Source: Deltaproteobacteria bacterium
GTDB lineage: Bacteria > Desulfobacterota > Syntrophobacteria > BM002
NCBI GenBank assembly: GCA_037384945.1
Contig: JARRNM010000016.1
Coordinates: 6,913-70,912, forward strand
Direction: 5' to 3'
Length of the DNA: 64,000 nt
In this document: piece after piece, positions 5,203-62,480 of the stretch
Layout: the number at the start of each line of letters is the position of its first letter
How positions within the stretch are numbered: the stretch's first letter is position 1
Notes under the pieces: generated by a model
The model's database searches: none
What the model saw: the letters and a program-made list of their open reading frames with translations, nothing else
Told to the model about the DNA's origin: nothing
Program-made: the position numbers and the translations under genes

Positions 5203-5303
5203 CTCCAGCAGAATAACGAATCAATGAAAGACCAGCTCTGGGGACAGCCCAAAGCCAAGTCCCTTGGGACTGGAATCTTTACTCCTAGGAGGAATCTTAA
5301 AAT

Positions 5304-8601: not shown

Positions 8602-9264
8602 ATGGCCCATCCTCTAATCTGTTGCAACGAGGAGGAAATCGTCCTCATGCCGGAAAACAAGGGAGCTATTGATTTTCTTCGAGAGCACGGAGAGACTTCT
8701 CTAGTCAACCTGGGATGTGGTCTCATGGTCAACAGGATAGACAATCACCTTCGGCTCATGACCGCATTGCATCTTACTTATTACGTAGGCATAGACTGTC
8801 TTCCGGGGATTGTACAGGTTTCTCCCGATCTTTTCTTGGACCCTGACGGTATGACAAGGTTGCTAAGCGACTACTACCAGGGCGAACCTCGCCGGTTCTG
8901 GGCAAATGTTAGACTATTTCCTGAGACCTGGGTGGAGGAACTGAGAAATATTCATTGTGCTGTGGTGGTATGCCAAAGGGTGTATCCACACTGCCGCTGG
9001 GAAGAGGTTATCTTCTCCATGAGTCCGAAATTGGTGCTCCAAGAGGATCTTCATGGTTGCGAACGACAGCAACTTCGAGGGAAGAAGTACGTTCGAACCT
9101 GGGCAGAGAAAAAGTACTATGGCCTTAGACCCTTCAAACCTTGGCCGATTTTTCCAGGAGAATATAATCTAATACTTTGGCGCAGCCGCGATTTTGAAGT
9201 GGATGGGATTGTTGAAGGTAGGGGGAAAATACTTCGACGACTGCGCGAATGGGTGATGGGATAA
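8602..9264 (+). CDS. Hypothetical protein with a weak SAM-methyltransferase motif-I-like segment
   Basis: 220 aa. The VNLGCGL and YYVGIDC spacing resembles motif I and post-I of class I methyltransferases. The start is uncertain (8602 or 8647). Confidence 0.45.
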   Translation: MAHPLICCNEEEIVLMPENKGAIDFLREHGETSLVNLGCGLMVNRIDNHLRLMTALHLTYYVGIDCLPGIVQVSPDLFLDPDGMTRLLSDYYQGEPRRFWANVRLFPETWVEELRNIHCAVVVCQRVYPHCRWEEVIFSMSPKLVLQEDLHGCERQQLRGKKYVRTWAEKKYYGLRPFKPWPIFPGEYNLILWRSRDFEVDGIVEGRGKILRRLREWVMG

Positions 9265-9523
9265 CCAGTCAGCATGGGGCATAGAGCATGGAGCGTGGAG
9301 CATGGAGCCAGAGGTCGGAGGTCGGAAGTCAGAGGACAGACGACAGCAAGCAGCGTCGTTATCCGTTATTAGTTACTCGTTGCACGGATGATCTGTCCTT
9401 ATGAGTTGTCGTGAAGCCTTCTACGATTTCTACGGTTTCTACGATTTGAACGACTTCAATGGCTTGAACGACTTTAACGGTTTCTAAACATTTTAGGCAT
9501 TTTAGACACTTCAGGCAGTTGCC
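9265..9523. repeat. Spacer made entirely of drifting tandem repeats: about 21 heptamers, then 11 nonamers
   Basis: 9271-9417 parses as AGCATGG GGCATAG AGCATGG AGCGTGG AGCATGG AGCCAGA GGTCGGA GGTCGGA AGTCAGA GGACAGA CGACAGC AAGCAGC GTCGTTA TCCGTTA TTAGTTA CTCGTTG... 9418-9516 parses as CTTCTACGA TTTCTACGG TTTCTACGA TTTGAACGA CTTCAATGG CTTGAACGA CTTTAACGG TTTCTAAAC ATTTTAGGC ATTTTAGAC ACTTCAGGC. The array ends at the ATG of the next gene. Confidence 0.9.
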
Positions 9524-11543: not shown

Positions 11544-13208
11544 ATGAAGACGGAAAGCCAAAGTGATACCAACCGTCAAACCGCGATCCTCTCCGCTCTC
11601 GGCAACCCTGATTTCTACCCACATCCGGTTGGAACGATTCAGGTTGAAGAGACCCACATTTCAAGAGTCTTCCTGACCGGTGACTATGTCTACAAAATGA
11701 AAAAACCGGTGGATTTTGGCTTTTTGGACTATACAACTCTGGAAAAACGACACCATTTCTGCAAGCAGGAGGTCGTGCTCAATAACCGTCTAAGTGCAGA
11801 TGTATATCTAGGTGTGGTGTCCATTACCGAGGAGGCGGCAGGGTACGCCCTCAACGGTTTGGGTAAACCAGTGGAGTACGCGGTGAAAATGCGCCAACTT
11901 CCAAAAGAGAAAACGATGCTGCAACTTTTGCGACGGGGCGAATTGAGCCTGGACATGTTGGGGGATTTGGTCCAGATCCTGGTGCGGTTTTACGAAAAGA
12001 CCGACAAAGGGCCAGAGATTGACCACATGGGTTCCCGGGAGCTGATTTGGGTCAACATCGAAGAAGATTTCGTCCAGACCAGTCCTTTTGTTTCAACCAT
12101 CCTGGACAGGGAAAAATTTTCTGATTTGCACCTGCGGGTACGAACTTTTCTCAACTCCCAGGCGGAGATTTTTGACCGCCGGATAAAATCTGGATACATC
12201 CGGGACTGTCACGGTGATCTGCGCTTGGGCCACATATATTTTGCCGACTCTATATCCATTATCGACTGTATAGAGTTCAACGAAAGGTTTAGGTACGGTG
12301 ATTTGGCTTCTGACTTGGCTTTTCTGGGAATGGACCTAGACTATAATGGCTTTGCCCATATAGGACAAAAATTTTTCGCCGAGTATGCTCAGTCGGCGGA
12401 TGATCCCGAGATTTTCCTGATCCTTGATTTCTATAAGTGCTACAGGGCTCATGTACGCTGCAAAGTTGAGTGTCTGAGGTATGGGACAGGAGAACTTTCA
12501 GGACCAGAGGCGGCTTCAGTTAATGCGAGAGCGCAGAGCTATTTGGAGCTGGCCTGGAGGTATGCAGACACTTTTAGCCGTCAAACCATCTGGATCGTCT
12601 GCGGGCTGAGCGGCAGTGGGAAGAGTACTATAGCTGCAGATCTAGGACGGCTGATGAACCTGAAGTTTATTGGATCCGATGTCACCAGGAAAAGACTCTT
12701 TGGGCTTAGTCCCGAGCAGGAGGTGGTCAAACCCTTTGGTGAGTCGATTTACAGCCCAGCCGCCAGCGACAAGACCTACGAGCATTTGCTCCTTGAGGCA
12801 CGAAAAGAGATGTCCCGGGGCAGATCAGTTATTTTGGATGCCACTTTTGGCAGACACCGTTACAGGGTATTAGCTCGGAGGCTCGCCGAGGAAATGAAGG
12901 CAAATGTAATCTTCATAGAGTGCCGATGCGGACTCTCAGTGTTGCGCCAGAGGCTGACGGAGCGAAAAGAGCAAAAGTCAATATCAGATGCGCGGTTAGA
13001 ACATCTGGATGCTCAGAGCCAGGCATTTGAGCCCCTGGATGAATTGGGGGATGGCATCCATCTCCCCATCAACACCGAACAACCACTCCACCAGTGTGTA
13101 CACCAGATTTTGTCCAAGGGGTATGGGCTACGGAGTCAGCAAGGGGATGCCGCAAGGAAGGAAGCAGGCAACAGCCAGCAACTGTTTCAACCAGGCACTA
13201 AGAACTAA
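11544..13208 (+). CDS. Two-domain protein: aminoglycoside-phosphotransferase-like kinase fold plus a P-loop (AAA/adenylate-kinase-like) domain
   Basis: 554 aa. The N-terminal half has the APH-like catalytic segment CHGDLRLGHIY and DCIEFNERFRYGD. The C-terminal half has Walker A GLSGSGKST. Confidence 0.7.
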   Translation: MKTESQSDTNRQTAILSALGNPDFYPHPVGTIQVEETHISRVFLTGDYVYKMKKPVDFGFLDYTTLEKRHHFCKQEVVLNNRLSADVYLGVVSITEEAAGYALNGLGKPVEYAVKMRQLPKEKTMLQLLRRGELSLDMLGDLVQILVRFYEKTDKGPEIDHMGSRELIWVNIEEDFVQTSPFVSTILDREKFSDLHLRVRTFLNSQAEIFDRRIKSGYIRDCHGDLRLGHIYFADSISIIDCIEFNERFRYGDLASDLAFLGMDLDYNGFAHIGQKFFAEYAQSADDPEIFLILDFYKCYRAHVRCKVECLRYGTGELSGPEAASVNARAQSYLELAWRYADTFSRQTIWIVCGLSGSGKSTIAADLGRLMNLKFIGSDVTRKRLFGLSPEQEVVKPFGESIYSPAASDKTYEHLLLEARKEMSRGRSVILDATFGRHRYRVLARRLAEEMKANVIFIECRCGLSVLRQRLTERKEQKSISDARLEHLDAQSQAFEPLDELGDGIHLPINTEQPLHQCVHQILSKGYGLRSQQGDAARKEAGNSQQLFQPGTKN

Positions 13209-13495
13209 GCACTAGGCACCGTGGCAAGACAGGCAAAGCACGGAAGAGGCGAGACGGCACTTTCAGCTAGCAGCAGGCAGATAATACAGAAGTCGGAGAT
13301 CAGAGGTCAGACGACAGAGGACGGATGACAGATGACAGAAAGGAACTGATTTAGTCCAAGAGGAGCAGAATCTAGGATCACAGATTTTTATTTTCGAAAT
13401 TCGAAATTCGCATTTCGAAATGTGGACTCTGTGCTCTATGCTCCTTGCTCTATGCTTCCCAAATCCGCAATCCGAAATAATCCATCTCCATGTCT
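13209..13495. repeat. Single-phase array of about 41 drifting heptamers
   Basis: Parsed from the base after the stop codon: GCACTAG GCACCGT GGCAAGA CAGGCAA AGCACGG AAGAGGC GAGACGG ... TCGGAGA TCAGAGG TCAGACG ACAGAGG ACGGATG ACAGATG ACAGAAA ... TTTTCGA AATTCGA AATTCGC ATTTCGA ... GCTCTAT GCTCCTT GCTCTAT GCTTCCC AAATCCG CAATCCG. Confidence 0.9.
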
Positions 13496-13850: not shown

Positions 13851-14030
13851 GCATGGAGCATTGAGTCAAACGAGACGGGCGAGACGGGAGGTCGGACGAG
13901 ACGAGGATATAGACGGGGAAGTCGGAACGGGGAACGTGGAATTATTTTCTGTGTTCAAAGCTAACGGTCTAAACCGGCTAACAGGCTAAGCTGCCGGCTA
14001 AATCTTCGCTACTGACTACCAGTTGCGTGT
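13851..14030. repeat. Short-period drifting repeats (7 nt, then about 9-10 nt) in a divergent spacer
   Basis: GCATGGA GCATTGA ... GAGACGG GCGAGAC GGGAGGT CGGACGA GACGAGG ... CGGGGAA GTCGGAA CGGGGAA CGTGGAA, then CTAACGGT CTAAACCGG CTAACAGG CTAAGCTGCCGG CTAAATC. Confidence 0.7.
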
Positions 14031-14066
14031 CCTTAAGAACCAGTGACTGGACGGGTTGAGTTTGCT

Positions 14067-14857
14067 ATGAAAATTGCAACCTGGAATGTGAACTCCATAA
14101 GGGTGAGGTTGCAAACGGTTTTGGACTGGATGACTCTGGAGCGGCCGGATGTTCTCTGCCTGCAGGAGATAAAGGTCACTAGTGAACTGTTTCCCGTCGA
14201 TTCTTTCGAGGCTCTAGGCTACCGGGTTGAGGCAAGTGGCCAAAAAACGCAAGTGGCCAAAAAACCTACAATGGGGTGGCCATAGTGAGCAAATATCACC
14301 TGAGTGAGGTGGAGAAAGAGCTGCCTGACTACGACGCCGAAAATCAGAAGAGAATAATCAGCGCAACCATAGGTGATGTGAGGGTAGTAAATGTCTATGT
14401 TCCCCATGGTGCGGCGGTTGGCTCAGCCAAATTTGCTTACAAACTGGGATTCATCAGGGAGCTACATAATTATCTGACAAAGCATCACAACCCCGCTGAA
14501 ATGCTAATTTTAACCGGGGATTTCAATGTGGCCCCGGAAGCCTGCGATGTTTACGATGTCCAAGAGATGGAAGGCGAAATCGGCTTTCATCCAGAGGAGC
14601 GCACCGCGCTGGCAGATTTGAAAGGTTGGGGTTTTGCTGATGTCTTCCGGCTACATCACCAGGAAGGTGGTCTATACAGTTGGTGGGACTATAGGGCTGG
14701 TGCCTTTCGCCGCAATATGGGCCTGAGGATCGACCACATCTGGGCTACGGAGCCACTTTCAGCACTTAGTTCAGAGAGCGGCATGGATAAAAGACAGCGT
14801 TCTTTGCCCAAGCCCTCAGACCACATTCCAGTCTGGGCCACCTTCGATCTCAGTTAG
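14067..14857 (+). pseudogene. xth: Exodeoxyribonuclease III disrupted by a 17-bp tandem duplication
   Basis: ORF 14043..14285 ([22 protein letters not shown]) and ORF 14276..14857 (..TGDFNVAP..RIDHIW..PSDHIPV) are the two halves of Xth. Removing one copy of GCAAGTGGCCAAAAAAC restores ..[18 protein letters not shown].. in a single 258-codon frame. Confidence 0.9.
14232..14265 (+). repeat. Perfect 17-bp direct tandem duplication inside xth
   Basis: GCAAGTGGCCAAAAAAC at 14232-14248 is repeated exactly at 14249-14265. Confidence 0.95.
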
Positions 14858-15249
14858 CATAGAGCATAGGGCATAGGGCAAAAAACAAGAAGTCAGAGAT
14901 CAGAGGTCAGAAGTCAGAGGTCGCAAATCAGAAAGACGGTAATTTCGGATTGTGAATTTAAAAAGGCATAGGGCCTGGAGCATGGCGTAAGGAGCCAGGA
15001 GCCAGAATTCAAGAGAAAAGGAATCAAGATTGACTTCATCTGAGCTGCCGCCTCTTTGAACCGCAGAATGTCGAACAAGGAATCTTGAATATCGAAGGGA
15101 TCACTTCATCATTCTGCGGTTCCTTGTTCTGCTGTTCGATATTCAGTACTTTGAAGCATCTGCCCTCTGACCTCCGACTTCTCAGCACCTTCGTGCCTAG
15201 TGCCTAGATGATACAGCTGCCAGTTGCGAGCTGTCAGTTGCTAGCTTTG
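14858..15249. repeat. Single-phase array of about 56 drifting heptamers filling a convergent spacer
   Basis: Parsed from the base after the xth stop: CATAGAG CATAGGG CATAGGG CAAAAAA CAAGAAG TCAGAGA TCAGAGG TCAGAAG TCAGAGG TCGCAAA TCAGAAA ... GGAGCCA GGAGCCA ... TCTGCCC TCTGACC TCCGACT TCTCAGC ... TGCCTAG TGCCTAG ... AGCTGCC AGTTGCG AGCTGTC AGTTGCT. TGCCTAG at 15194 is exactly 48x7 nt from 14858. Confidence 0.9.
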
Positions 15250-15289
15250 GTCTTCCCTTCGTAGGAATTACTGGCCTTGTCTACTGGAA

Positions 15290-15955
15290 CTAGAGCTTGG
15301 TGAAGAAAAGGAGCGTCCTCCCCCCTCGCCCCCGGGGGAGTTCCAGTGAGACCATTCGATGAAGTTCGAGACTTTCAGCCTGGGCGAAGTCCGCAAATCC
15401 GGAGTGCCCTGAGGCCCTTGCCGGGCCCAACATGGCGACAAGAGTACTACCAGGCGTCATTATTGGCGCAACAAGCTTAACCAATGGCTCCAGGCGGGTG
15501 AAAGCACGGGAGATGATAGTATTGAAAGGTAGGTCTGCGGGCTCCATGAGCTCAAAACGGCTGTGTTGCACAACAACTGACTCCAGCTTGAGGGTGCGTA
15601 TTATGTGCTTGAGAAATGAAACTTTTTTGCGGCTCGCCTCCACAAGCGTAATTTTAAGTTCGCCAGCAGCAATCTTTAAGGGAATCGAGGGGAATCCCGC
15701 TCCTGGCCCAAGGTCGAGCAGTCGCCCAGAAGGTTCAAGGTAGGGTAAGGGAGTGAGCGAATCCACGAAGTGTTTGATGACAATGTCTTCGGGATCTCTA
15801 ATCCCGGTGAGATTGAAAGTCTTGTTCCACTCCAAAAGCGTTTGCAAGTAGAGCTCAAAAAGCTCTATCTGTGAGTCTCGAAGGGAGACGCCCATCTCAT
15901 TCGACGTTTGGCGGAGCAACTCTCCGACGCCGGAAATGATCAATCTATCTTCCAA
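15290..15955 (-). CDS. rsmG: 16S rRNA (guanine527-N7)-methyltransferase RsmG (GidB)
   Basis: 221 aa. Contains WNKTFNLTGIRDPEDIVIKHFVDSL and LLDLGPGAGFPSIPLKI, typical of GidB. Confidence 0.9.
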   Translation of the reverse strand: MEDRLIISGVGELLRQTSNEMGVSLRDSQIELFELYLQTLLEWNKTFNLTGIRDPEDIVIKHFVDSLTPLPYLEPSGRLLDLGPGAGFPSIPLKIAAGELKITLVEASRKKVSFLKHIIRTLKLESVVVQHSRFELMEPADLPFNTIISRAFTRLEPLVKLVAPIMTPGSTLVAMLGPARASGHSGFADFAQAESLELHRMVSLELPRGRGGRTLLFFTKL

Positions 15956-22615: not shown

Positions 22616-22660
22616 TTCCCATCCTTAATTATGGACAAGTCATTTATATCACTGCTTCAA

Positions 22661-22975
22661 CCCCAATCCCCAATTCCCAATCTGCAATCAAAGAATATAG
22701 TAGCCAGAATCCAGCAAGCATAGAGCATAGAGCAAAGGGCATAGGGTTAAAAATTCTGATTTCGAAATTAGAAATTAAAAATCCGAAATCTGTCGTCTGT
22801 TGTCTGTCATCTGCCATCTCATTAGTATGCCCAATGACAGCGCAGGGTAATGGCCCAATGACGACGAAGCCAAGTGACCCATATCGCCCTATGCCTTGTA
22901 CCTTGCGGTTTTCGCCTTTCATCAATCCGCAATCTACAATTCCTCTGTCCAGCACCATACCTACCAATACCAGGA
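22661..22975. repeat. Single-phase array of 45 drifting heptamers in a divergent promoter region
   Basis: Base-by-base parse: CCCCAAT CCCCAAT TCCCAAT CTGCAAT CAAAGAA TATAGTA GCCAGAA TCCAGCA AGCATAG AGCATAG AGCAAAG GGCATAG GGTTAAA AATTCTG ATTTCGA AATTAGA AATTAAA AATCCGA AATCTGT CGTCTGT TGTCTGT CATCTGC CATCTCA ... TGCCTTG TACCTTG CGGTTTT CGCCTTT CATCAAT CCGCAAT CTACAAT ... Confidence 0.92.
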
Positions 22976-28451: not shown

Positions 28452-28478
28452 AAAAACCCCGGGTCTCCCGGGGTTTTT
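28452..28478. terminator. Bidirectional rho-independent terminator
   Basis: AAAAACCCCGGG tct CCCGGGGTTTTT is a perfect 12-bp stem with an A-run on one side and a T-run on the other, placed between convergent qrcD and nadB. Confidence 0.85.
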
Positions 28479-28657: not shown

Positions 28658-30300
28658 TCATGCCCATTGATCCAGGCGGATTATGGTGTCTCGTTGCCAG
28701 CGCTCCTCGTCCTTCTGGGGGTGGTCGACGTTGAAATGGAGTCCGCGGCTTTCGCGACGCTTGCGAGCACAGATGACGATCAACTCCGCAACAGTGGCCA
28801 GATTTCTCAGTTCGATGAGATCACTGTTTAGGCTTATATTGGGGTAGTGTTCGTTGATTTCTTGTTGTATCTGGGCCAGGTGATTTTGTGCCAGGATTAA
28901 ACGGCTGTCCTTGCGAACGATGCCCACGTAGTTCCACATAAGGCGCCGGATTATGTCCCAATTGTAAGCTATAAGTACCATTTCGCTATCGTTGGCGTTC
29001 AGTGGCATCTCCAAAGGGGGAACCTGGGGAAACCGGATCTTTTCTCCTGCGGACAGAGGTTCGCTATTGATCTGCATAGCAGCTGCATGGGCGAAGACCA
29101 GGGCTTCGAGGAGGGAGTTGCTGGCCAACCGGTTGGCTCCATGGAGGCCGGTACAGGCTGATTCACCCAAGGCATAGAGATGTTGGATGCTAGTACGTCC
29201 GTGCTCGTCGGTGCGCACTCCACCGCACATGTAATGGGCCGCCGGCACTACCGGGATTGGTTCTTTGGTAATGTCGATGCCAAGGGAAAAACATTTCTCA
29301 TAGATATTGGGAAAACGCTGTCGCAGAAAATCGGCATCGCGATGACCTATGTCCAGATAAACGCAGTCGTCCCCACTTTGTTTGATCTCGGTATCAATGG
29401 CTCGAGCCACTACGTCTCGACAAGCCAGATCTTTAAGGGGGTGGTATTTGGCCATGAAGGCCTGTCCACGTTTATCTAGCAGACGCCCACCCTCGCCCCG
29501 CACCGCTTCTGATATGAGGAAATTTTTTGCATGGGGGTGATAGAGGCAGGTGGGGTGAAATTGAACAAATTCCATATTGGCCACTTCCGCCCCCGCTCGG
29601 TATGCCATGGCTACACCGTCTCCAGTGGCCACATCAGGGTTGCTGGTGTAAACGTATACCTTGCCGGCACCGCCTGTACAAAGTAGGGTGTCTCTTGCCA
29701 GGAAGGTCAAGATACGATTTCCCTCGATATCGAGAACGTAGGCTCCCCAGCATCGTTCCTGCCGTCGGGTGGTCAGTAACCCTCGTTTGAGGAGCCGGCA
29801 TTCGACAATTAAATCGATGGCAATGTAATTTTCAAAAACAGATATGTTCGGGTGCTCCTCGGCCATGGAGAGCAAGACTCGCTCCACCTCTCTCCCGGTC
29901 ATATCCTGGGCGTGGACAATTCGACTGCGGGAGTGGCCCCCCTCGCGAATGGTGTGGAGTCCTGCTGCCCTCGCTGGAAGCGCACGCCCATTTCAGCCAG
30001 TTCCCTGATACGGTCAGGGCCGCTTTTAATTACCATGGCCACTATATCGGGATGACACAGTCCATCGCCGGCGCTCAGAGTATCCTGGATATGAAGGTCG
30101 AAAGAGTCCTCGGGGTCAAGGACCGAGGCAATTCCACCTTGGGCGTAGTTGGTGCTGGTTTCTACACTTTCCTTCTTGGTCACCACAGCAACCGCACGGT
30201 TTGTCGCCAATTTGAGGGCGAAGGTAAGGCCGGCGATGCCGCTCCCAACCACCAACGTGTCGAATTTCATGATGTCAGTTGTCATTTTTTCAATTCTCAA
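28658..30300 (-). pseudogene. nadB: L-aspartate oxidase with a single-base frameshift in a C6/G6 run
   Basis: ORF 29899..30300 (FAD site DTLVVGSGIAGL.., ends ..FARGATPAVELSTPRI*) and ORF 28658..29902 are the N- and C-terminal parts of NadB. The total span is 1643 nt (3n+2). Adding one G to the G6 run (29937-29942) gives ..FARGGHSRSRIVHAQDMTGREVE.., the conserved GGHS..R..HA.D.TG segment. Confidence 0.9.
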
Positions 30301-30574
30301 TTACCTTTAGTCATTTCGCCTTATTAAAATAGGGTAACCACAGAAGTCTATTAACTAAATAATAAATGAAAAATTACAAATGATAAATGAGGAATGTTGC
30401 CCCTTGATTAGGAGACGGTGGACCTGAACCGGGTGTTTAATGAACAAGAGCGAGACCTTAACTCCATGTTCCCTGACAGGGAGATGAGAAAATTCCTCAA
30501 GCAGGTTGATAAGAATCGGCGCAGTAACCAAAGGTTTCTCAAGGGAATGAAGAGAGACACACTCTGGGAGGAAG

Positions 30575-31249: not shown

Positions 31250-31488
31250 GAAGAAAGAACCACGAAGAACACGAAAAATACAAAAATACAATAGGTGTGG
31301 GATGTGGGATAGGTGATGTGAGATTCAACATCCCTCATTTCAGATCTCACATCTCATATCCAATTTTCCATCTGTTTCGGATTTAGGATTTATCTGCAGG
31401 GTCTGGATTCCAAATTCGGCCCTTTAAGCCTTGGTGCCTAGTGCATAGTGCCTAGTTAAGTCCAGTCTATCGCCTAGACGCGGGGAAG
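31250..31488. repeat. Spacer of 34 heptamers in one phase, running from stop+1 to start-1
   Basis: GAAGAAA GAACCAC GAAGAAC ACGAAAA ATACAAA AATACAA TAGGTGT GGGATGT GGGATAG GTGATGT GAGATTC AACATCC CTCATTT CAGATCT CACATCT CATATCC ... TTCGGAT TTAGGAT TTATCTG ... TGGTGCC TAGTGCA TAGTGCC TAGTTAA ... Confidence 0.9.
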
Positions 31489-33007: not shown

Positions 33008-33189
33008 TCATATCTCATATCTCATATCTCATATCTCATTTCTCATTTCACATTTCGCATTTCTCAGTGGTCATCTATCATCGATAATCCAGAACAAAAA
33101 TTATACGTCCATTTCATATGAATGAAAAATGTTAGATGAGCGATGGGAAATGATAAATTATCTGCCAGCTGCTTCCTGCCAGCTGAAAA
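33008..33189. repeat. 26 heptamers in one phase from the mazG stop+1 to the SRP RNA 3' end
   Basis: TCATATC x4, TCATTTC x2, ACATTTC GCATTTC TCAGTGG TCATCTA TCATCGA ... GAATGAA AAATGTT AGATGAG CGATGGG AAATGAT AAATTAT CTGCCAG CTGCTTC CTGCCAG. Confidence 0.9.
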
Positions 33190-33470
33190 AAAGCCCTTGG
33201 CCGTGCACCCCACATCGGGATCAGCTTTTTCAAGGAGCATCTGCGTTGTAGCTCTGATCAGAGATGTCCACGACACAAACTGCAATACTTACCGCTGCTT
33301 CCTCCCGGACCTGACGGGGTTCGTATCCGTTTGTTGCGCGGTGTCCAATCAGCAACAATCACAAACAACTCCCGGTCGAACTGAAGCTCTCCATAGGGAA
33401 TTCAACCCCGCATAAGCGGATTTCGGGTTACAGGGCACCGCTAACTCCCCATCTAGCACGACCAAGGGCT
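33190..33470 (-). ncRNA. ffs: Signal recognition particle RNA, large (Bacillus-type, with Alu domain)
   Basis: The minus strand contains the domain IV motif GTCAGGTCCGGGAGGAAGCAGCGG (33315..33292) within a symmetric-loop helix. A 5' segment GTCGTGCTAGATGGGGAGTTAGCGGTGCCCTGTAACCCGAAATCCGC..GGGGTTGAATTCCC closely resembles the Alu domain of B. subtilis scRNA as I remember it. The 5' CCCTTGGTCGTGC pairs with the 3' GCACGGCCAAGGG, which is followed by a T-run. Confidence 0.85.
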
Positions 33471-43046: not shown

Positions 43047-43245
43047 CGGAAACTCCTTAATGTCATTCTGAGCCCTTCGCCGGGACCTGTCGACGAGCTC
43101 AGGTCGAGTCGCTCAGGACAAGCTCCGCTGTGTCATCCTGAGCCCTTCGGCTGACTCAGGATAAACTCCGCGAAGGATCTCTGCGGCCGCACTAACCATG
43201 AGATTCTTCGTCGTCCCGCTGTTAGCGGGACTCCTCAGAATGACA
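43047..43245. repeat. Composite palindromic element bounded by TGTCATTCTGAG / CTCAGAATGACA, with nested hairpins
   Basis: CGGAAACTCCTTAA-TGTCATTCTGAG (43047-43072) ... CTCAGAATGACA (43234-43245). Inner hairpins are TGTCATCCTGAG..CTCAGGATA, GAAGGATCTC..GAGATTCTTC and GTCCCGCtgttaGCGGGAC. A second, simple copy is at 49896-49948. Confidence 0.8.
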
Positions 43246-47250: not shown

Positions 47251-47410
47251 GGCATAGGGCATGGAGCATAGGGCAAAAATTTCGAAATTCGAAATTATCC
47301 TATGTGTCATCTGTCATCCATCCTTTGTCGTCTGTCCTCTAATCCCCGTCTCTTGCCACTGTGCCTAGCGCTCAGTTCCTAGTGCCATGGCCCAACGGCT
47401 GCCAGCTGAA
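47251..47410. repeat. About 23 heptamers in one phase ending at the stop codon of the convergent kinase gene
   Basis: GGCATAG GGCATGG AGCATAG GGCAAAA ATTTCGA AATTCGA AATTATC CTATGTG TCATCTG TCATCCA TCCTTTG TCGTCTG TCCTCTA ... GCCTAGC GCTCAGT TCCTAGT GCCATGG CCCAACG GCTGCCA GCTGAAT. Confidence 0.88.
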
Positions 47411-48514
47411 TTAGAGTCGCCTCACCCTAATCGGTCTCCGCTTATCCCGCGGTATCTCTAAAATGACCGTAGTTCCCTTTCCAACTTCGCTCTCAATCTG
47501 AATGCTTCCGCCGTGATCGTTAATGATTCTCTGACTTATGGTGAGGCCGAGCCCCACGTGCTCGTTTTTTGTGGTGAAAAGAGGGTCAAAAACGAGGGGT
47601 TGATTCTCTGGTTTTATCCCGCAGCCGTCGTCACTTACGCTAAACTGAATGCGGTCATCCTTAGCGTCCACAATAAAATTGATGACCACGGTTGGATCTC
47701 CTGATTCCAAGGAATTGGTGAAAATGTTGGCCAGACATTGGGAGAGAATATTCACATCCATAAAGGCACGGAACGAAGAGAGTTCTTCACTGGGAGGAGC
47801 ATGCCACTCGGAGGCTGCCGCCATTAGAGTTTGGGGAACCATAGTCATAGATAGCTTCAAGAGGTTGTCAAAATTGTCTTCTGCCATGGTGGGAAGGGGC
47901 AAGGTGGTGAAACTGGCCAGATTTTTGAGCAGGTTGTCCAACCTGCTGGCTTCTTGATAAATGATTTCCTTGTAGAGCTGCCTGTCTTTTTCGTCCAATC
48001 CCTTTTTGAGCAAGCGGCCGGCAAATCCACCAATTGCCGCGATCGGGTTACGGATGTGATGAGCCATCTGATCCACCACTTTTGCCATGGACCGCACCCG
48101 CTCTGTTTCAATGGACTCACGCTGAAGGGTTTTTAGGGTTCCGATATCCTGAATGGTTAAGACAATAACGTCCTTGTCACTGCTGCGGTAAAGGAGGGTG
48201 GTGAGATAGGCGAAGAACTTTCGGCCTTTGCTATCCCGGAGAAGAGCCTCTCCCTCAAAGTTTCCCGTGTCCGAGGTGAGTTTTATTATGTTGGGCAGGA
48301 AAATATCGTAGTCATCTTCCAAAAACAAGGAAGAGATCCCACGGTCCTTCCACCCGCCCGGCGCGAATCCGAATAACTGCTCGGCAAAAGTGTTGACGAA
48401 CAACATCTGTCCTGAAGACTCAAAAAGGACTAGGCCGTGAGGCATTGACTGGAGAATTGCTTCAAGCAGGTCCTGGTGGAGATGCCTGGAATTGGTCATG
48501 GTTAGTTTCCGCAA
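47411..48514 (-). CDS. PAS-domain sensor histidine kinase
   Basis: 367 aa. An N-terminal PAS domain, the HisKA H-box (MAHHIRNPIAAIGGF) and HATPase_c (DDGCGI..GLGLTISQRII..GG). Confidence 0.88.
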   Translation of the reverse strand: MRKLTMTNSRHLHQDLLEAILQSMPHGLVLFESSGQMLFVNTFAEQLFGFAPGGWKDRGISSLFLEDDYDIFLPNIIKLTSDTGNFEGEALLRDSKGRKFFAYLTTLLYRSSDKDVIVLTIQDIGTLKTLQRESIETERVRSMAKVVDQMAHHIRNPIAAIGGFAGRLLKKGLDEKDRQLYKEIIYQEASRLDNLLKNLASFTTLPLPTMAEDNFDNLLKLSMTMVPQTLMAAASEWHAPPSEELSSFRAFMDVNILSQCLANIFTNSLESGDPTVVINFIVDAKDDRIQFSVSDDGCGIKPENQPLVFDPLFTTKNEHVGLGLTISQRIINDHGGSIQIESEVGKGTTVILEIPRDKRRPIRVRRL

Positions 48515-54766: not shown

Positions 54767-55790
54767 TCATTCCACAATACTCTCTCTGAGGGCGTGGAGA
54801 TGCGGAACCGGAACTGACATGCACTGGTCACGATCCGGGTTATAGGCGAAACGGTAGGACAATCCCATGTTGCCCTGGCGGTACATGACCTCCCAGCCTC
54901 TGACCACAAATGGACATGCATCGTTGAAACAGACAAAGAGGAATTCCATGTCCCATCCTGTGAAGGGGTTCTGAGGCAATTGCCATTTCAGTAAACCCTC
55001 CTTGCAGTGGGGACACTCCAGTGTATGTTTCACCGCTGATTTTCTGCGCTCGAGTTCCCCTGGATCTGGGAGATCCGTAAGGGGCCACATTGATGAAAGG
55101 TCAGGCCTTTTGCTCCTCCCCCCTCCACTTTTTTCGGCATATACCGCATAGATGGGGTCGCTGGGAATGCCGAGATGGGCATACTTGTCGTCCCTGGGCC
55201 TCGGCTTCCCTTTTGAGACGAACACCCGTGGACTTCTAAAGACACCCGCCCGCTTGAAGAACTCTTCAACCAGCACAACCCGCTCATCCTCTCCAGACTG
55301 GCGCCAGATCTTAACCGCCTTTTGCTCGAACATGCGATTGGAGAAAATTACCAGCCTCGAGAGGTCTGGTTATGTAGTCTACGGATACCACATTGAGGAC
55401 AGCATCAAAGGTCTCTTCTGCAAAGGGTAGAGAGGGGATCTTATTCAAATCGTGATAGATCCAATCAGTCAAATTTTTATTGCGCGAGAGCTCATTACGG
55501 TTGAGACCAAGTCCCACAACTCTCTCGGCATGAATGGTGGGAGGAATGTGGGAATCCCAGCCAGCCATCAAGTCCAAAATAATTGGGTTATGCTCAATGA
55601 CAAGCTCACCGATTATCCTTTCCACAGTTGACAGGGCAAGAGAGTCTATATGCTGAACGAATCGATCAGCGGCATAAAATATGGAGTCATCTGATTCGTC
55701 CAACCTGGAGAATGAATCATCGCCTTGGAGAAATTCCCGAAAGAAGGATTCAGTGTGAGCCTGGAGCTTCTCAGCCTTTTTATCTTTCAT
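54767..55790 (-). pseudogene. Class I SAM-dependent methyltransferase-like gene with a C-terminal zinc-ribbon domain, reading frame broken
   Basis: ORF 55311..55790 ends ..FDAVLNVVSVDYITRPLEAGNFLQSHVRAKGG*. ORF 54767..55333 continues in the +1 frame (..LVIFSNR)MFEQKAVKIWRQ... The span is 1024 nt (3n+1). The segment expected between RPLE and FSNR (the RVLKPGG-type motif III) is missing. The junction is at an A4 run (55344-55347). Confidence 0.6.
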
Positions 55791-61039: not shown

Positions 61040-61284
61040 AAATCTTCAATCCACATTCTACAATCTGAAAGTAAAGAATTCAGTAATCAACGGTCAGCGG
61101 TAAGTAGCAAAAGGTAGATGGTTATCGAGCATCCAAAATCTCAATTCGGCAAAGTCTCGATTGTTCAATCGTAAATCCCCAATCTTCTCCATGCCTTATG
61201 CCCTGTGCCCTATGCCATCCCAAATCCGCAATCCGAATTCCACACTCCGAAATCTAACCGCTGCCTACTGCCAGCTGCCTGCTG
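61040..61284. repeat. Heptamer arrays extending into the last 10 codons of the VWA gene
   Basis: In phase from 61194: CCTTATG CCCTGTG CCCTATG CCATCCC AAATCCG CAATCCG AATTCCA CACTCCG AAATCTA ACCGCTG CCTACTG CCAGCTG CCTGCTG. The VWA stop is at 61254-61256. Confidence 0.8.
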
Positions 61285-62480
61285 GCTTTCTTAGGGGATG
61301 CCCCGGAATTCAGCCACTCCACCGCCCGCCTGATGCCGGCCAGGGTCAGTTCTTCCATGGGAAAAATTTCGCCTATTTGCTTGATGGTTTGGCTTTCCCG
61401 GGGCCAGTGAGACCGGGGGATGGGGTTGAGCCACACACTATGGCCGAAGTTGTTGCGAATTTGCCAGAGCCAGTCCCGCCCGGGCACTCTAATCTTGGAA
61501 AAATAATCCATAGCGCCGTCCGAGAGCATGAGTTCGGCCGGAGCCATGTTGGCATCTCCTATAATTATCACCCTGGTTTCAGGATCCCGTCTTAACATCT
61601 GGTAAATTGGATATGCGGCCAGACGTTGGGGATCGCTGTAAACGCAGCCGTAGATACAATTGTGGAAATAATAGTAGTCGAGGTCCTTGAACTGGTCGCG
61701 CATGAGGCCGAAGACCAGCTTTACCAGATCCAAATAAGGGCGCATGGAGGCGCCACCATTATCCAACAATACCATGAGCTGAATGCGATCTCTCAACTCT
61801 CTCCTAAATACCAACTCGATTTCCCCGCCGTTTCTGCAAGATTGGTCAATGGATTCGTCAACATCAAGTTCGGTGGGAGGGCCTGCTGGAGTCATGTGTT
61901 TAAGTGCTGCCAGTACCTGTCGGAGGTTTTTGGCCCTGAGAGTGGTAGAGGCGGCGTAATCTACATAACGGCGGGACTCTATGATCTTCAGGGCTCCACC
62001 GTGCAGGGGGTCGCCTTCCGCCCGAATGCCTTCGCGTTGTGCCCCGGTGTGGCCGAAGGCTGAACCGCCTCCGGTACCGACCCAGGTGTGACCGCCACGG
62101 TGTTTTTCCCTCTGCTCCCTGGCCACTTCCCAGAATCTCTGGAGCAACTCTGGCAGAGAAAGGTTCTCCAAATCATGATCAGAGAACCTCCCTTTCGCCA
62201 GTTCTTCTTCCAGCCAGCGGCTGAAAGCTTTGTCGTCCCAAGCCTGTTGAGTGAAGCGGGGGATGGTATCGCCCTCGGCGCCCAGAAAATAGGCGGCAAA
62301 GGCTTGTTCGAAAGCGTCGAAATGTTCCACTTTCTTAATAAAAATAAGACGCATCAAAATGAACAGCCGGTCCAGGTCAAGGACAATCCCCTTTTCCAGG
62401 GCCTGGTAGAATTCCAGCACATAGCGGAGGCTAATGGGGATACCCTGATCCCGCAACTGATAAAAGAAAGGAAGGAACAT
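61254..62480 (-). CDS. VWA-domain protein (CoxE-like partner of the MoxR ATPase)
   Basis: 408 aa, translationally adjacent to the AAA gene. The C-terminal half has the VWA-like MIDAS region (VLLDNGGASM ... IIIGDANM). Confidence 0.7.
   Translation of the reverse strand: MFLPFFYQLRDQGIPISLRYVLEFYQALEKGIVLDLDRLFILMRLIFIKKVEHFDAFEQAFAAYFLGAEGDTIPRFTQQAWDDKAFSRWLEEELAKGRFSDHDLENLSLPELLQRFWEVAREQREKHRGGHTWVGTGGGSAFGHTGAQREGIRAEGDPLHGGALKIIESRRYVDYAASTTLRAKNLRQVLAALKHMTPAGPPTELDVDESIDQSCRNGGEIELVFRRELRDRIQLMVLLDNGGASMRPYLDLVKLVFGLMRDQFKDLDYYYFHNCIYGCVYSDPQRLAAYPIYQMLRRDPETRVIIIGDANMAPAELMLSDGAMDYFSKIRVPGRDWLWQIRNNFGHSVWLNPIPRSHWPRESQTIKQIGEIFPMEELTLAGIRRAVEWLNSGASPKKASRQLAVGSG

Follow-up and report, generated by a model that had tools for sequence, protein, structure and literature searches.

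The spacer between the convergent genes xth and rsmG, at positions 14858-15289 (432 nt) of a 64-kb stretch of the deltaproteobacterial contig JARRNM010000016.1 (this whole stretch is called the window below), was found to be a mosaic of short tandem arrays of 7-nt units. As a whole it is read here, with a probability of about 0.6, as a heptamer mosaic resembling the short tandemly repeated repetitive (STRR) sequences of cyanobacteria but located in a new lineage, expanding and contracting through slippage and having a putative stem role at gene 3′ ends. The descriptive account, that of a dispersed mosaic of heptamer arrays changing by whole-unit slippage and occasional block replacement, is well supported. 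In the proposed mechanism, polymerase slippage would add or remove whole 7-nt units in each short array; the modules, made from a small heptamer vocabulary, sit after stop codons and are exchangeable as blocks. A transcript from xth or rsmG would fold into a long imperfect stem, which may act as a 3′-end barrier or stabiliser between the convergent genes, in the manner of repetitive extragenic palindromic (REP) sequences and bacterial interspersed mosaic elements (BIMEs) and as proposed for STRR hairpins. This last role is the weakest step and of modest probability.

The identity of bases 7 nt apart (lag-7 identity) was 0.461 over the spacer (z ~10), in comparison with 0.232 at lag 6 and 0.281 at lag 8, and it was raised at lags 14 and 21 too. 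This comparison of lags had been suggested by an earlier reading of the sequence alone (the sequence-only reading), which had also recognised the spacer with both of its flanking genes at coordinates now confirmed, the pair TGCCTAG TGCCTAG starting at 15194 (origin + 336), and several unit families, which were borne out by Tandem Repeats Finder (TRF) and by family comparison. Its description of the spacer as one array of about 56 heptamers did not hold, since the periodicity is patchy. Five separate short arrays were reported by TRF. Strong periodicity was restricted to 14858-14934 (lag-7 0.71), 14961-15016 (0.61) and 15150-15246 (0.52), the segment 15058-15149 was weakly periodic (0.40-0.44; p = 0.018 for the 0.44 value), and 15017-15065 (0.21, p = 0.71) and 15247-15289 (0.17) were at chance level. 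Summed over the spacer, strong periodicity extends over about 230 nt and weak periodicity over about 90 nt; about 120 nt, or a quarter of the total, show none.

The parsing in sevens from the first base after the xth stop proves nothing, because the mean neighbour identity per heptamer was 3.18-3.23 of 7 in every one of the seven possible offsets. The phase is not unbroken either: the word CATAGGG is in phase 0 at 14865 and 14872 but in phase 4 at 14967, and all the GCATRGN units of the 14963-15005 array are shifted by 4 nt relative to the units of the first array. The pattern thus needs no special selection for keeping phase, as independent short arrays, each changing by whole units, are sufficient. 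In general agreement with the sequence-only reading, arrays do tend to start at stop codons.

Seven unit families were distinguished, named A (AGGCACT), B (GAGACGG), C (AGAGGTC), D (TTCGAAA), E (CTCTATG), F (AATCCGA) and Q (CAGCTGG), with lower case for the reverse complement. On the plus strand the layout of the spacer is e5 C6 / f3 e3, a D-like centre, c4 a3 q5 / and a 43-nt rsmG trailer, that is, at least seven short heptamer arrays plus about 120 nt of non-periodic DNA (Table 1). The same families were found elsewhere in the window: words of the first e array recur at 22719-22746, 47251-47279 and 61199-61215, family C at 13288-13320 and 9309-9335, and family F at 13460 and 61217. The modules also recur in a similar order at non-orthologous spacers. 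A composite (Q) A (B) C D E F is present at 13189-13480, it is found reversed at 47251-47411 and, in the spacer itself, at 14941-15246, and partial composites were observed at 9270-9346, 22712-22815, 31373-31460 and 61087-61287. Read in the sense of the mRNA, purine-rich A- or e-type arrays followed by C arrays come after the stops of xth, rsmG, the gene for a 554-aa protein, the histidine-kinase gene at 47411 and the gene ending at 9264.

The nearest genomes are metagenome-assembled genomes (MAGs) of Deltaproteobacteria or Syntrophobacterales, with RsmG identities of 64-80%; further relatives were drawn from metagenomes, and the loci of the relatives are labelled L001, L003 and so on. Heptamer families fill the DNA downstream of stops in the window and in 11 related deltaproteobacterial genomes. 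The A module is a 28-mer, AGGCACY AGGAACT AAGCACT AGGCACC, whose order of unit variants is kept in nine copies from five genomes and which gave no hits in shuffled sequence. It lies at 13193-13220 (+), 47360-47387 (−) and 31433-31460 (−) in the window, and at L001 3751, L003 3730 and 5246, L004 3675 and L012 2127 in the relatives, usually in mRNA sense and just after a stop codon. Its locus-specific variants (AAGRACT vs AGGAACT) are common to orthologues, suggesting that the copies have been in place since before the species split.

The heptamer habit is general in this DNA. Period 7 accounts for 39 of the 67 TRF rows of the window, and perfect adjacent repeats of 7-mers occupy 112 positions (~4 expected, ~29-fold excess), as against 37 for 6-mers and 4 for 8-mers. 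Strict lag-7 blocks cover 10.6% of the intergenic but 0.24% of the coding bases. They are placed preferentially behind genes: a lag-7 identity of at least 0.40 was found in 13/40 flanks downstream of stops vs 2/42 upstream of starts (Fisher p = 0.0014), the mean lag-7 identity was 0.39 in convergent and 0.29 in divergent spacers (p = 0.006), and an array begins at most 15 nt from the stop at 10 of 53 genes, compared with 2 of 53 for the start (p = 0.028). At xth, the 554-aa gene, TsaD and the gene ending at 54767 the array spans the stop codon itself. Among 12 orthologous rsmG-xth spacers 11 are heptamer-rich; blocks are present in every locus with an RsmG identity of at least 64% and there are none in a relative with 39%. 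The Xth tail after the conserved ...WATFDL varies from 0 to 12 residues (L001, L003, L005, L006, L011, L012, L013), because the repeats run past the end of the gene and provide its stop codon. No description of heptamer arrays in Deltaproteobacteria was found in a literature search.

Length changes were compared among strains with 22 contigs of other assemblies, which cover 57.7 kb of the window and are mostly 99.5-99.9% identical to it. At 15175, within the GACYTCY array, five nearly identical metagenome contigs from five samples carry 14 extra nt (GACTTCC GACCTCT) that the window lacks, and at 33019-33033 a 14-nt indel falls in the TCATATC array (33008-33066) directly after the MazG stop. 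Both of these indels lie inside heptamer arrays and amount to exactly two units. Between species, L003 is without 21 nt of the Q (CAGCnnn) array relative to the window, and the copy number of this array runs from 1 to 5 across the relatives. That whole units are gained and lost, with steps of 14 nt among strains and of 21 nt from one species to another, fits slipped-strand mispairing during replication. The sequence-only reading had anticipated a length polymorphism in multiples of 7, and this was observed at the level of assemblies. The spacer as a whole does not keep to such steps in related genomes: orthologous spacers are 432/446, 381, 308, 253, 248, 191, 187, 149, 137, 134 and 115 nt long, lengths that are not congruent modulo 7. 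Indels between arrays of the relatives include non-multiples of 7, and the phase of the C family relative to the rsmG stop is 0, 1, 2 or 6 depending on the genome.

Larger replacements were also found. Up to the Q array the identity between L001 and L011 is 98.8%, and in xth it is 97.7%, but the cores of their spacers (L001 3728-4072, 345 nt; L011 3728-3831, 104 nt) are unrelated, as are the last approximately eight xth codons. The left breakpoint falls inside the CAGCnnn array, and the segment that replaces the core in L011 had no homologue among the sequences compared. Other parts of the spacer are kept well. An 89-nt block at 14895-14983, which includes module f, is 90% identical to L001 3916-4004, and six relatives retain the rsmG trailer (about 43-49 nt), whose conservation equals or exceeds that of synonymous (rsmG 4-fold) sites. 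Between L001 and L012, 57 of the 63 positions in the Q and A arrays are identical, in comparison with 65% at rsmG 4-fold sites (p = 3e-6), and in several genome pairs the trailer, Q and A arrays together are conserved as well as or better than these sites.

The e-C arm beside xth is complementary to the c-a arm beside rsmG. The predicted helices pair 14860-14879 with 15185-15206 (18 bp) and 14888-14914 with 15156-15182 (23 bp). For the window allele the C:c helix is predicted to have 23-26 bp and the fold z against shuffles is −2.9; the corresponding values for the +14 allele, which is the major one, are 32-37 bp and −6.0. A compact predicted hairpin of e-C and c-a arms (−54 kcal/mol) is also present at L003 5126-5277. 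Since the C and c arms alternate with a period of 14, order-preserving and nested complementarity of their units look alike. No canonical intrinsic terminator (GC-rich stem, 3-8-nt loop and U-tract) was detected in 14700-15450; the long stem does have a T6 run behind its 3′ arm (14881-14886, minus strand), but its "loop" exceeds 220 nt. Canonical terminators were not enriched in the window (20, 10 and 22 found vs 20.3, 21.4 and 22.1 in shuffles). The conservation of the trailer, Q and A arrays, the fold of the +14 allele and this want of terminators are the points in favour of a function.

Several observations weigh against this reading of the spacer. Orthologues do not keep the long stem: the predicted folding of six orthologous spacers does not surpass that of shuffled sequence (z −0.5 to +1.8), heptamer richness is uncorrelated with fold z across the window (Spearman −0.14, p = 0.48), and the alignment of trailer, Q and A arrays has no pairs with compensatory changes and a consensus energy of −3 kcal/mol. 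Single-nucleotide polymorphisms (SNPs) between close strains are denser in the arrays (4/1250) than in other intergenic DNA (6/8738; p = 0.03), which fits fast turnover better than tight constraint. The 14-nt differences among strains come from assemblies, in which the collapse of a tandem repeat would give the same signature, and the window assembly has other private indels of 17, 10 and 145 nt. Finally, slippage alone explains neither the preference for 7 nt nor the recurring order of the modules.

The main rival, possible but on balance unlikely, is that replication or repair in this lineage slips by preference in 7-nt steps and that the arrays are a functionless by-product, accumulating downstream of genes as far as the stop codon, where selection is weakest, with the palindromic layout incidental. 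Their depletion upstream of starts, their enrichment in convergent spacers, the hairpin that orthologues do not keep, the lack of a correlation between heptamer richness and folding, the fast turnover seen between L001 and L011, the raised SNP density and the Xth tails that vary where arrays overrun the stop would all be expected on this account; polymerase slippage is, moreover, an idea for heptamers already in the literature, in passages citing it in two articles (PMC4692102, PMC4679880). It does not readily accommodate the conservation of the Q and A arrays and of the rsmG trailer above synonymous sites in several genome pairs, nor the order of unit variants in the A 28-mer and of the modules, which is the same at non-orthologous loci and across species.

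That recurrence speaks for a rather unlikely alternative, a miniature mobile or recombining mosaic of REPIN (REP doublet forming hairpins), BIME or BOX type, in which Q-A-(B)-C-D-E-F or the e-C/c-a hairpin would be copied between gene 3′ ends by a transposase encoded elsewhere or by ectopic recombination at arrays they have in common, and the 7-nt rhythm would belong to the element itself. The 28 nt that the window spacer shares without mismatch with another, non-orthologous spacer of L003 (Table 1), the cassette-like exchange between L001 and L011 with its breakpoint in the CAGCnnn array, and the palindromic layout point the same way. It is opposed by the locus-specific variants of the A 28-mer, according to which the copies were already stationary when the species diverged. 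Neither terminal repeats nor target-site duplications were recognised. The 53 open reading frames (ORFs) of the window include no transposase domain (REP-associated tyrosine transposase, RAYT, and IS200-like Y1 included) and no reverse transcriptase, although one RAYT gene at any other place in a genome of several Mb would escape such a search.

The opposite of a by-product, a lineage-wide selected 3′-end system, is given a low probability. Heptamer modules would then be ordered cassettes placed at the stop codons of housekeeping genes, even supplying them, and would be read by a protein with a 7-nt footprint or as stems tunable by unit number. If so, the −14 and +14 alleles, with helices of 23 bp and 32-37 bp, would exemplify such tuning of strength, and the clade would give access to the function of STRRs, a question now 35 years old. 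Lower again, and distinctly doubtful, stands the proposal that the units are binding-site arrays for one protein of cold-shock, S1 or KH type, which would bind single-stranded nucleic acid, cover about 7 nt and act on the 3′ untranslated regions of the flanking genes. It would agree with conservation at the level of sequence without conservation of RNA structure and with the consistent orientation of A-/e-type and then C arrays after stops, and a precedent exists in CspB, which, in a passage reviewing it, binds heptamer repeats with one protein per unit (PMC4679880). Against it, the many unrelated units would demand a very loose specificity, and no candidate protein is linked to the arrays. 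Hardly any weight can be given to a single ancient array of about 56 heptamers held in register by selection against indels: the overall lag-7 excess and the whole-unit polymorphism would suit it, but not the equivalent parse frames, the same word 4 nt out of phase, the ~120 nt without periodicity, the orthologue lengths or the modules that are found elsewhere.

Table 1. Features of the xth-rsmG spacer and its flanking genes (window coordinates).
Feature	Coordinates	Strand	Evidence
xth (exodeoxyribonuclease III)	14043..14857	+	TIGR00195, 274 bits once one 17-nt copy removed
Array e (AGCATAG AGCATAG GGCATAG GGCA; reverse complement of E, CTCTATG)	14856..14880		TRF period 7, 3.6 copies, 94% matches
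Array C (AGAAGTC AGAGATC AGAGGTC AGAAGTC AGAGGTC GCAAATC), left arm of the long stem	14888..14933		TRF periods 7, 14, 21; inverted repeats
Module f (reverse complement of AATTCAC AATCCGA AATTACC), weakly periodic, conserved with L001	14934..14962		
Second e-type array (AAGGCAT AGGGCCT GGAGCAT GGCGTAA GGAGCCA GGAGCCA), 4 nt off the first e array	14963..15005		lag-7 0.61; TRF 14990-15005
Linker without 7-nt periodicity	15006..15057		lag-7 0.21 over 15017-15065
Centre: GAAnnnn array (15058-15100) opposite nnnnTTC array (15101-15145)	15058..15145		
Array c (TCTGCCC TCTGACC TCCGACT TCT), right arm of the long stem; site of the 14-nt polymorphism after 15175	15156..15182		
c-to-a junction GACTTCTCAGCACCTTCGTGCCTAGTGC	15176..15203		28 nt identical to a non-orthologous L003 spacer, 5230-5257
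Array a (GTGCCTA GTGCCTA G), two-unit remnant of the 28-nt A module; imperfect pairing with the e array	15193..15207		TRF
Array q (AGCTGCC AGTTGCG AGCTGTC AGTTGCT; family CAGCTGG, period 14)	15215..15246		orthologous to the CAGCnnn arrays of relatives
Non-periodic trailer straight after the rsmG stop (TTCCAGTAGACAAGG...AAGACC, minus strand)	15247..15289	−	lag-7 0.17; alignments
rsmG (16S rRNA m7G527 methyltransferase)	15290..15955	−	TIGR00138, 135 bits; TTG start

The stop codon of xth is TAG at 14855-14857 and falls within the first heptamer unit of the spacer; that of rsmG is at 15290-15292 on the minus strand. In the window xth is frameshifted by a perfect 17-nt tandem duplication (GCAAGTGGCCAAAAAAC twice, 14232-14265), and dropping one copy restores a full-length exodeoxyribonuclease III of 257 aa. 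The duplication is a private mutation or an assembly error, since all five other contigs of the same strain are without it. In another contig, Ga0568874_0001097 (L008/L019/L021), eight G-to-A changes are clustered in 51 nt of xth, equivalent to window 14670-14720, and truncate the product to 199 aa; the cluster looks like local hypermutation or deamination damage. The spacer has ORFs of only 40-54 aa. Its centre takes the place that module D (TTCGAAA family) has in the other copies, and it is not conserved in L001, from which it is missing. This centre holds a perfect 13-bp stem (15058-15070 / 15110-15122) with additional crossing complementarities. Complementary segments come in the same order on both of its sides (GAACCGCAGAATG, GAACAAGGAA, TGAATATCGAA ... 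CATTCTGCGGTTC, TTCCTTGTTC, TTCGATATTCA); the three perfect helices cross and cannot all form together.

The gene content of the window is that of a core chromosome (rnpA-yidD-yidC-jag-mnmE-rsmG, clpB, nifSU, cytochromes c3/c7 and a molybdopterin oxidoreductase), and its 53 ORFs include no gene of a mobile element. The only match above the gathering score in a search of the window with Rfam 15 was the bacterial large signal recognition particle RNA at 33201-33461 (−), with 148 bits, and there was none at E ≤ 1 in 14750-15400. The sole convincing canonical bidirectional terminator of the window is at 28452-28478, AAAAACCCCGGG-AGA-CCCGGGGTTTTT. Tandem arrays with 9-nt units (TTCTACGAT, CATTTTAGG, CGAGACGGG) adjoin heptamer arrays at 9419-9517 and 13871-13903.

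Strain differences were also recorded outside the heptamer arrays. At 43119 a 14-nt polymorphism lies between 9-nt direct repeats (AAGCTCCGC), in an intergenic position and outside any array. At 29945 a run of 10 nt (CGGGCTAGAT) present in other contigs is missing from the window; its absence splits a FAD_binding_2 / Succ_DH_flav_C gene (28658-30300, minus strand) into ORFs of 133 and 414 aa, while in contigs of the Joint Genome Institute (JGI) it is intact with 545 aa. At 30411/30412 a 145-nt non-heptameric segment of three JGI contigs is missing from the window; it holds the ribosome-binding site and ATG of an 86-aa ORF. An ORF of 104-108 aa over heptamer arrays at 22644-22967 (−), annotated in JGI contigs with no Pfam hit in the JGI annotation, is probably spurious. 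The same probably applies to ORFs called within arrays in general, and gene ends beside arrays should be regarded as unstable in annotation; short-read assemblies may collapse heptamer repeats.

Cyanobacterial heptanucleotide repeats have been on record since 1990, and repeats of this unit length are the commonest long simple-sequence repeat (SSR) in many bacteria; to our knowledge, neither a reason for the length of 7 nt nor any function has been established. The units of STRR1-3 are CCCCAGT, TTGGTCA and CAACAGT. No tandem pair of any of them was found in the window, and a cyanobacterial STRR locus is ruled out, because all the relatives found are Deltaproteobacteria and the STRR units do not occur in tandem. 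The likeness to STRRs is in the tandem 7-nt units of several families, the intergenic dispersal, the frequent hairpin potential and the variable copy number; the hosts differ, being here a deltaproteobacterial clade and not filamentous or heterocystous cyanobacteria. We know of no description, for STRRs, of ordered modules, of a conserved 28-mer or of arrays abutting stop codons, all features of the present arrays. Cyanobacterial STRRs have been described as 7-bp repeats with hairpins, of unknown function and with a suggested role in transcript stability (PMC2670836).

An excess of heptameric SSRs has been reported for GGGAATC in Xanthomonas and GGGGAYT in Nostoc (PMC4692102), and TAACTGA heptamers are found in Beggiatoaceae, Cyanobacteria and Bacteroidetes (PMC4679880). 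These share with the present arrays an intergenic excess specific for 7 nt, a length and sequence that vary between close relatives, and some inverted pairs between convergent genes. One dominant unit per genome prevails there and many families here, and TAACTGA arrays are mostly just upstream of start codons whereas the present arrays are mostly downstream of stops. None of GGGAATC, GGGGAYT and TAACTGA occurs in tandem in the window, and the host belongs to another phylum. For these heptamers as for STRRs, slippage of the polymerase has been put forward as the origin.

REP, BIME and REPIN sequences of enterobacteria and pseudomonads (PMC3116915) are likewise palindromic mosaics of high copy number outside genes; they too lie behind genes and in convergent spacers, and hairpins in RNA or ssDNA are predicted for them. 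The REP unit, however, is an imperfect palindrome of 20-60 nt arranged in inverted doublets, whereas here the arrays are of 7-nt units and palindromy exists only between whole arrays at a distance of 220-250 nt. REPINs depend on an association with RAYT transposases, and the present arrays share no sequence relationship with REP. BOX elements of Streptococcus pneumoniae, of structure boxA-boxB(n)-boxC with a boxB unit of about 45 nt and strong predicted secondary structure, are similar in being modular intergenic repeats with an internal module of variable copy number; the host phylum differs.

The locus is useful in three respects. It offers natural alleles that differ by whole units, orthologous and paralogous copies in which conservation can be measured and some modules exceed synonymous sites, and a positional rule, with arrays that follow stop codons, run into them and alter protein C-termini. 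With their excess of 7-nt units, their dispersed non-coding families and their copy-number changes by whole units (at the level of assemblies), the arrays agree in kind with heptameric SSRs and STRR-like sequences. They are a known but unexplained kind of repeat in a lineage new for it, an uncultured deltaproteobacterial clade.

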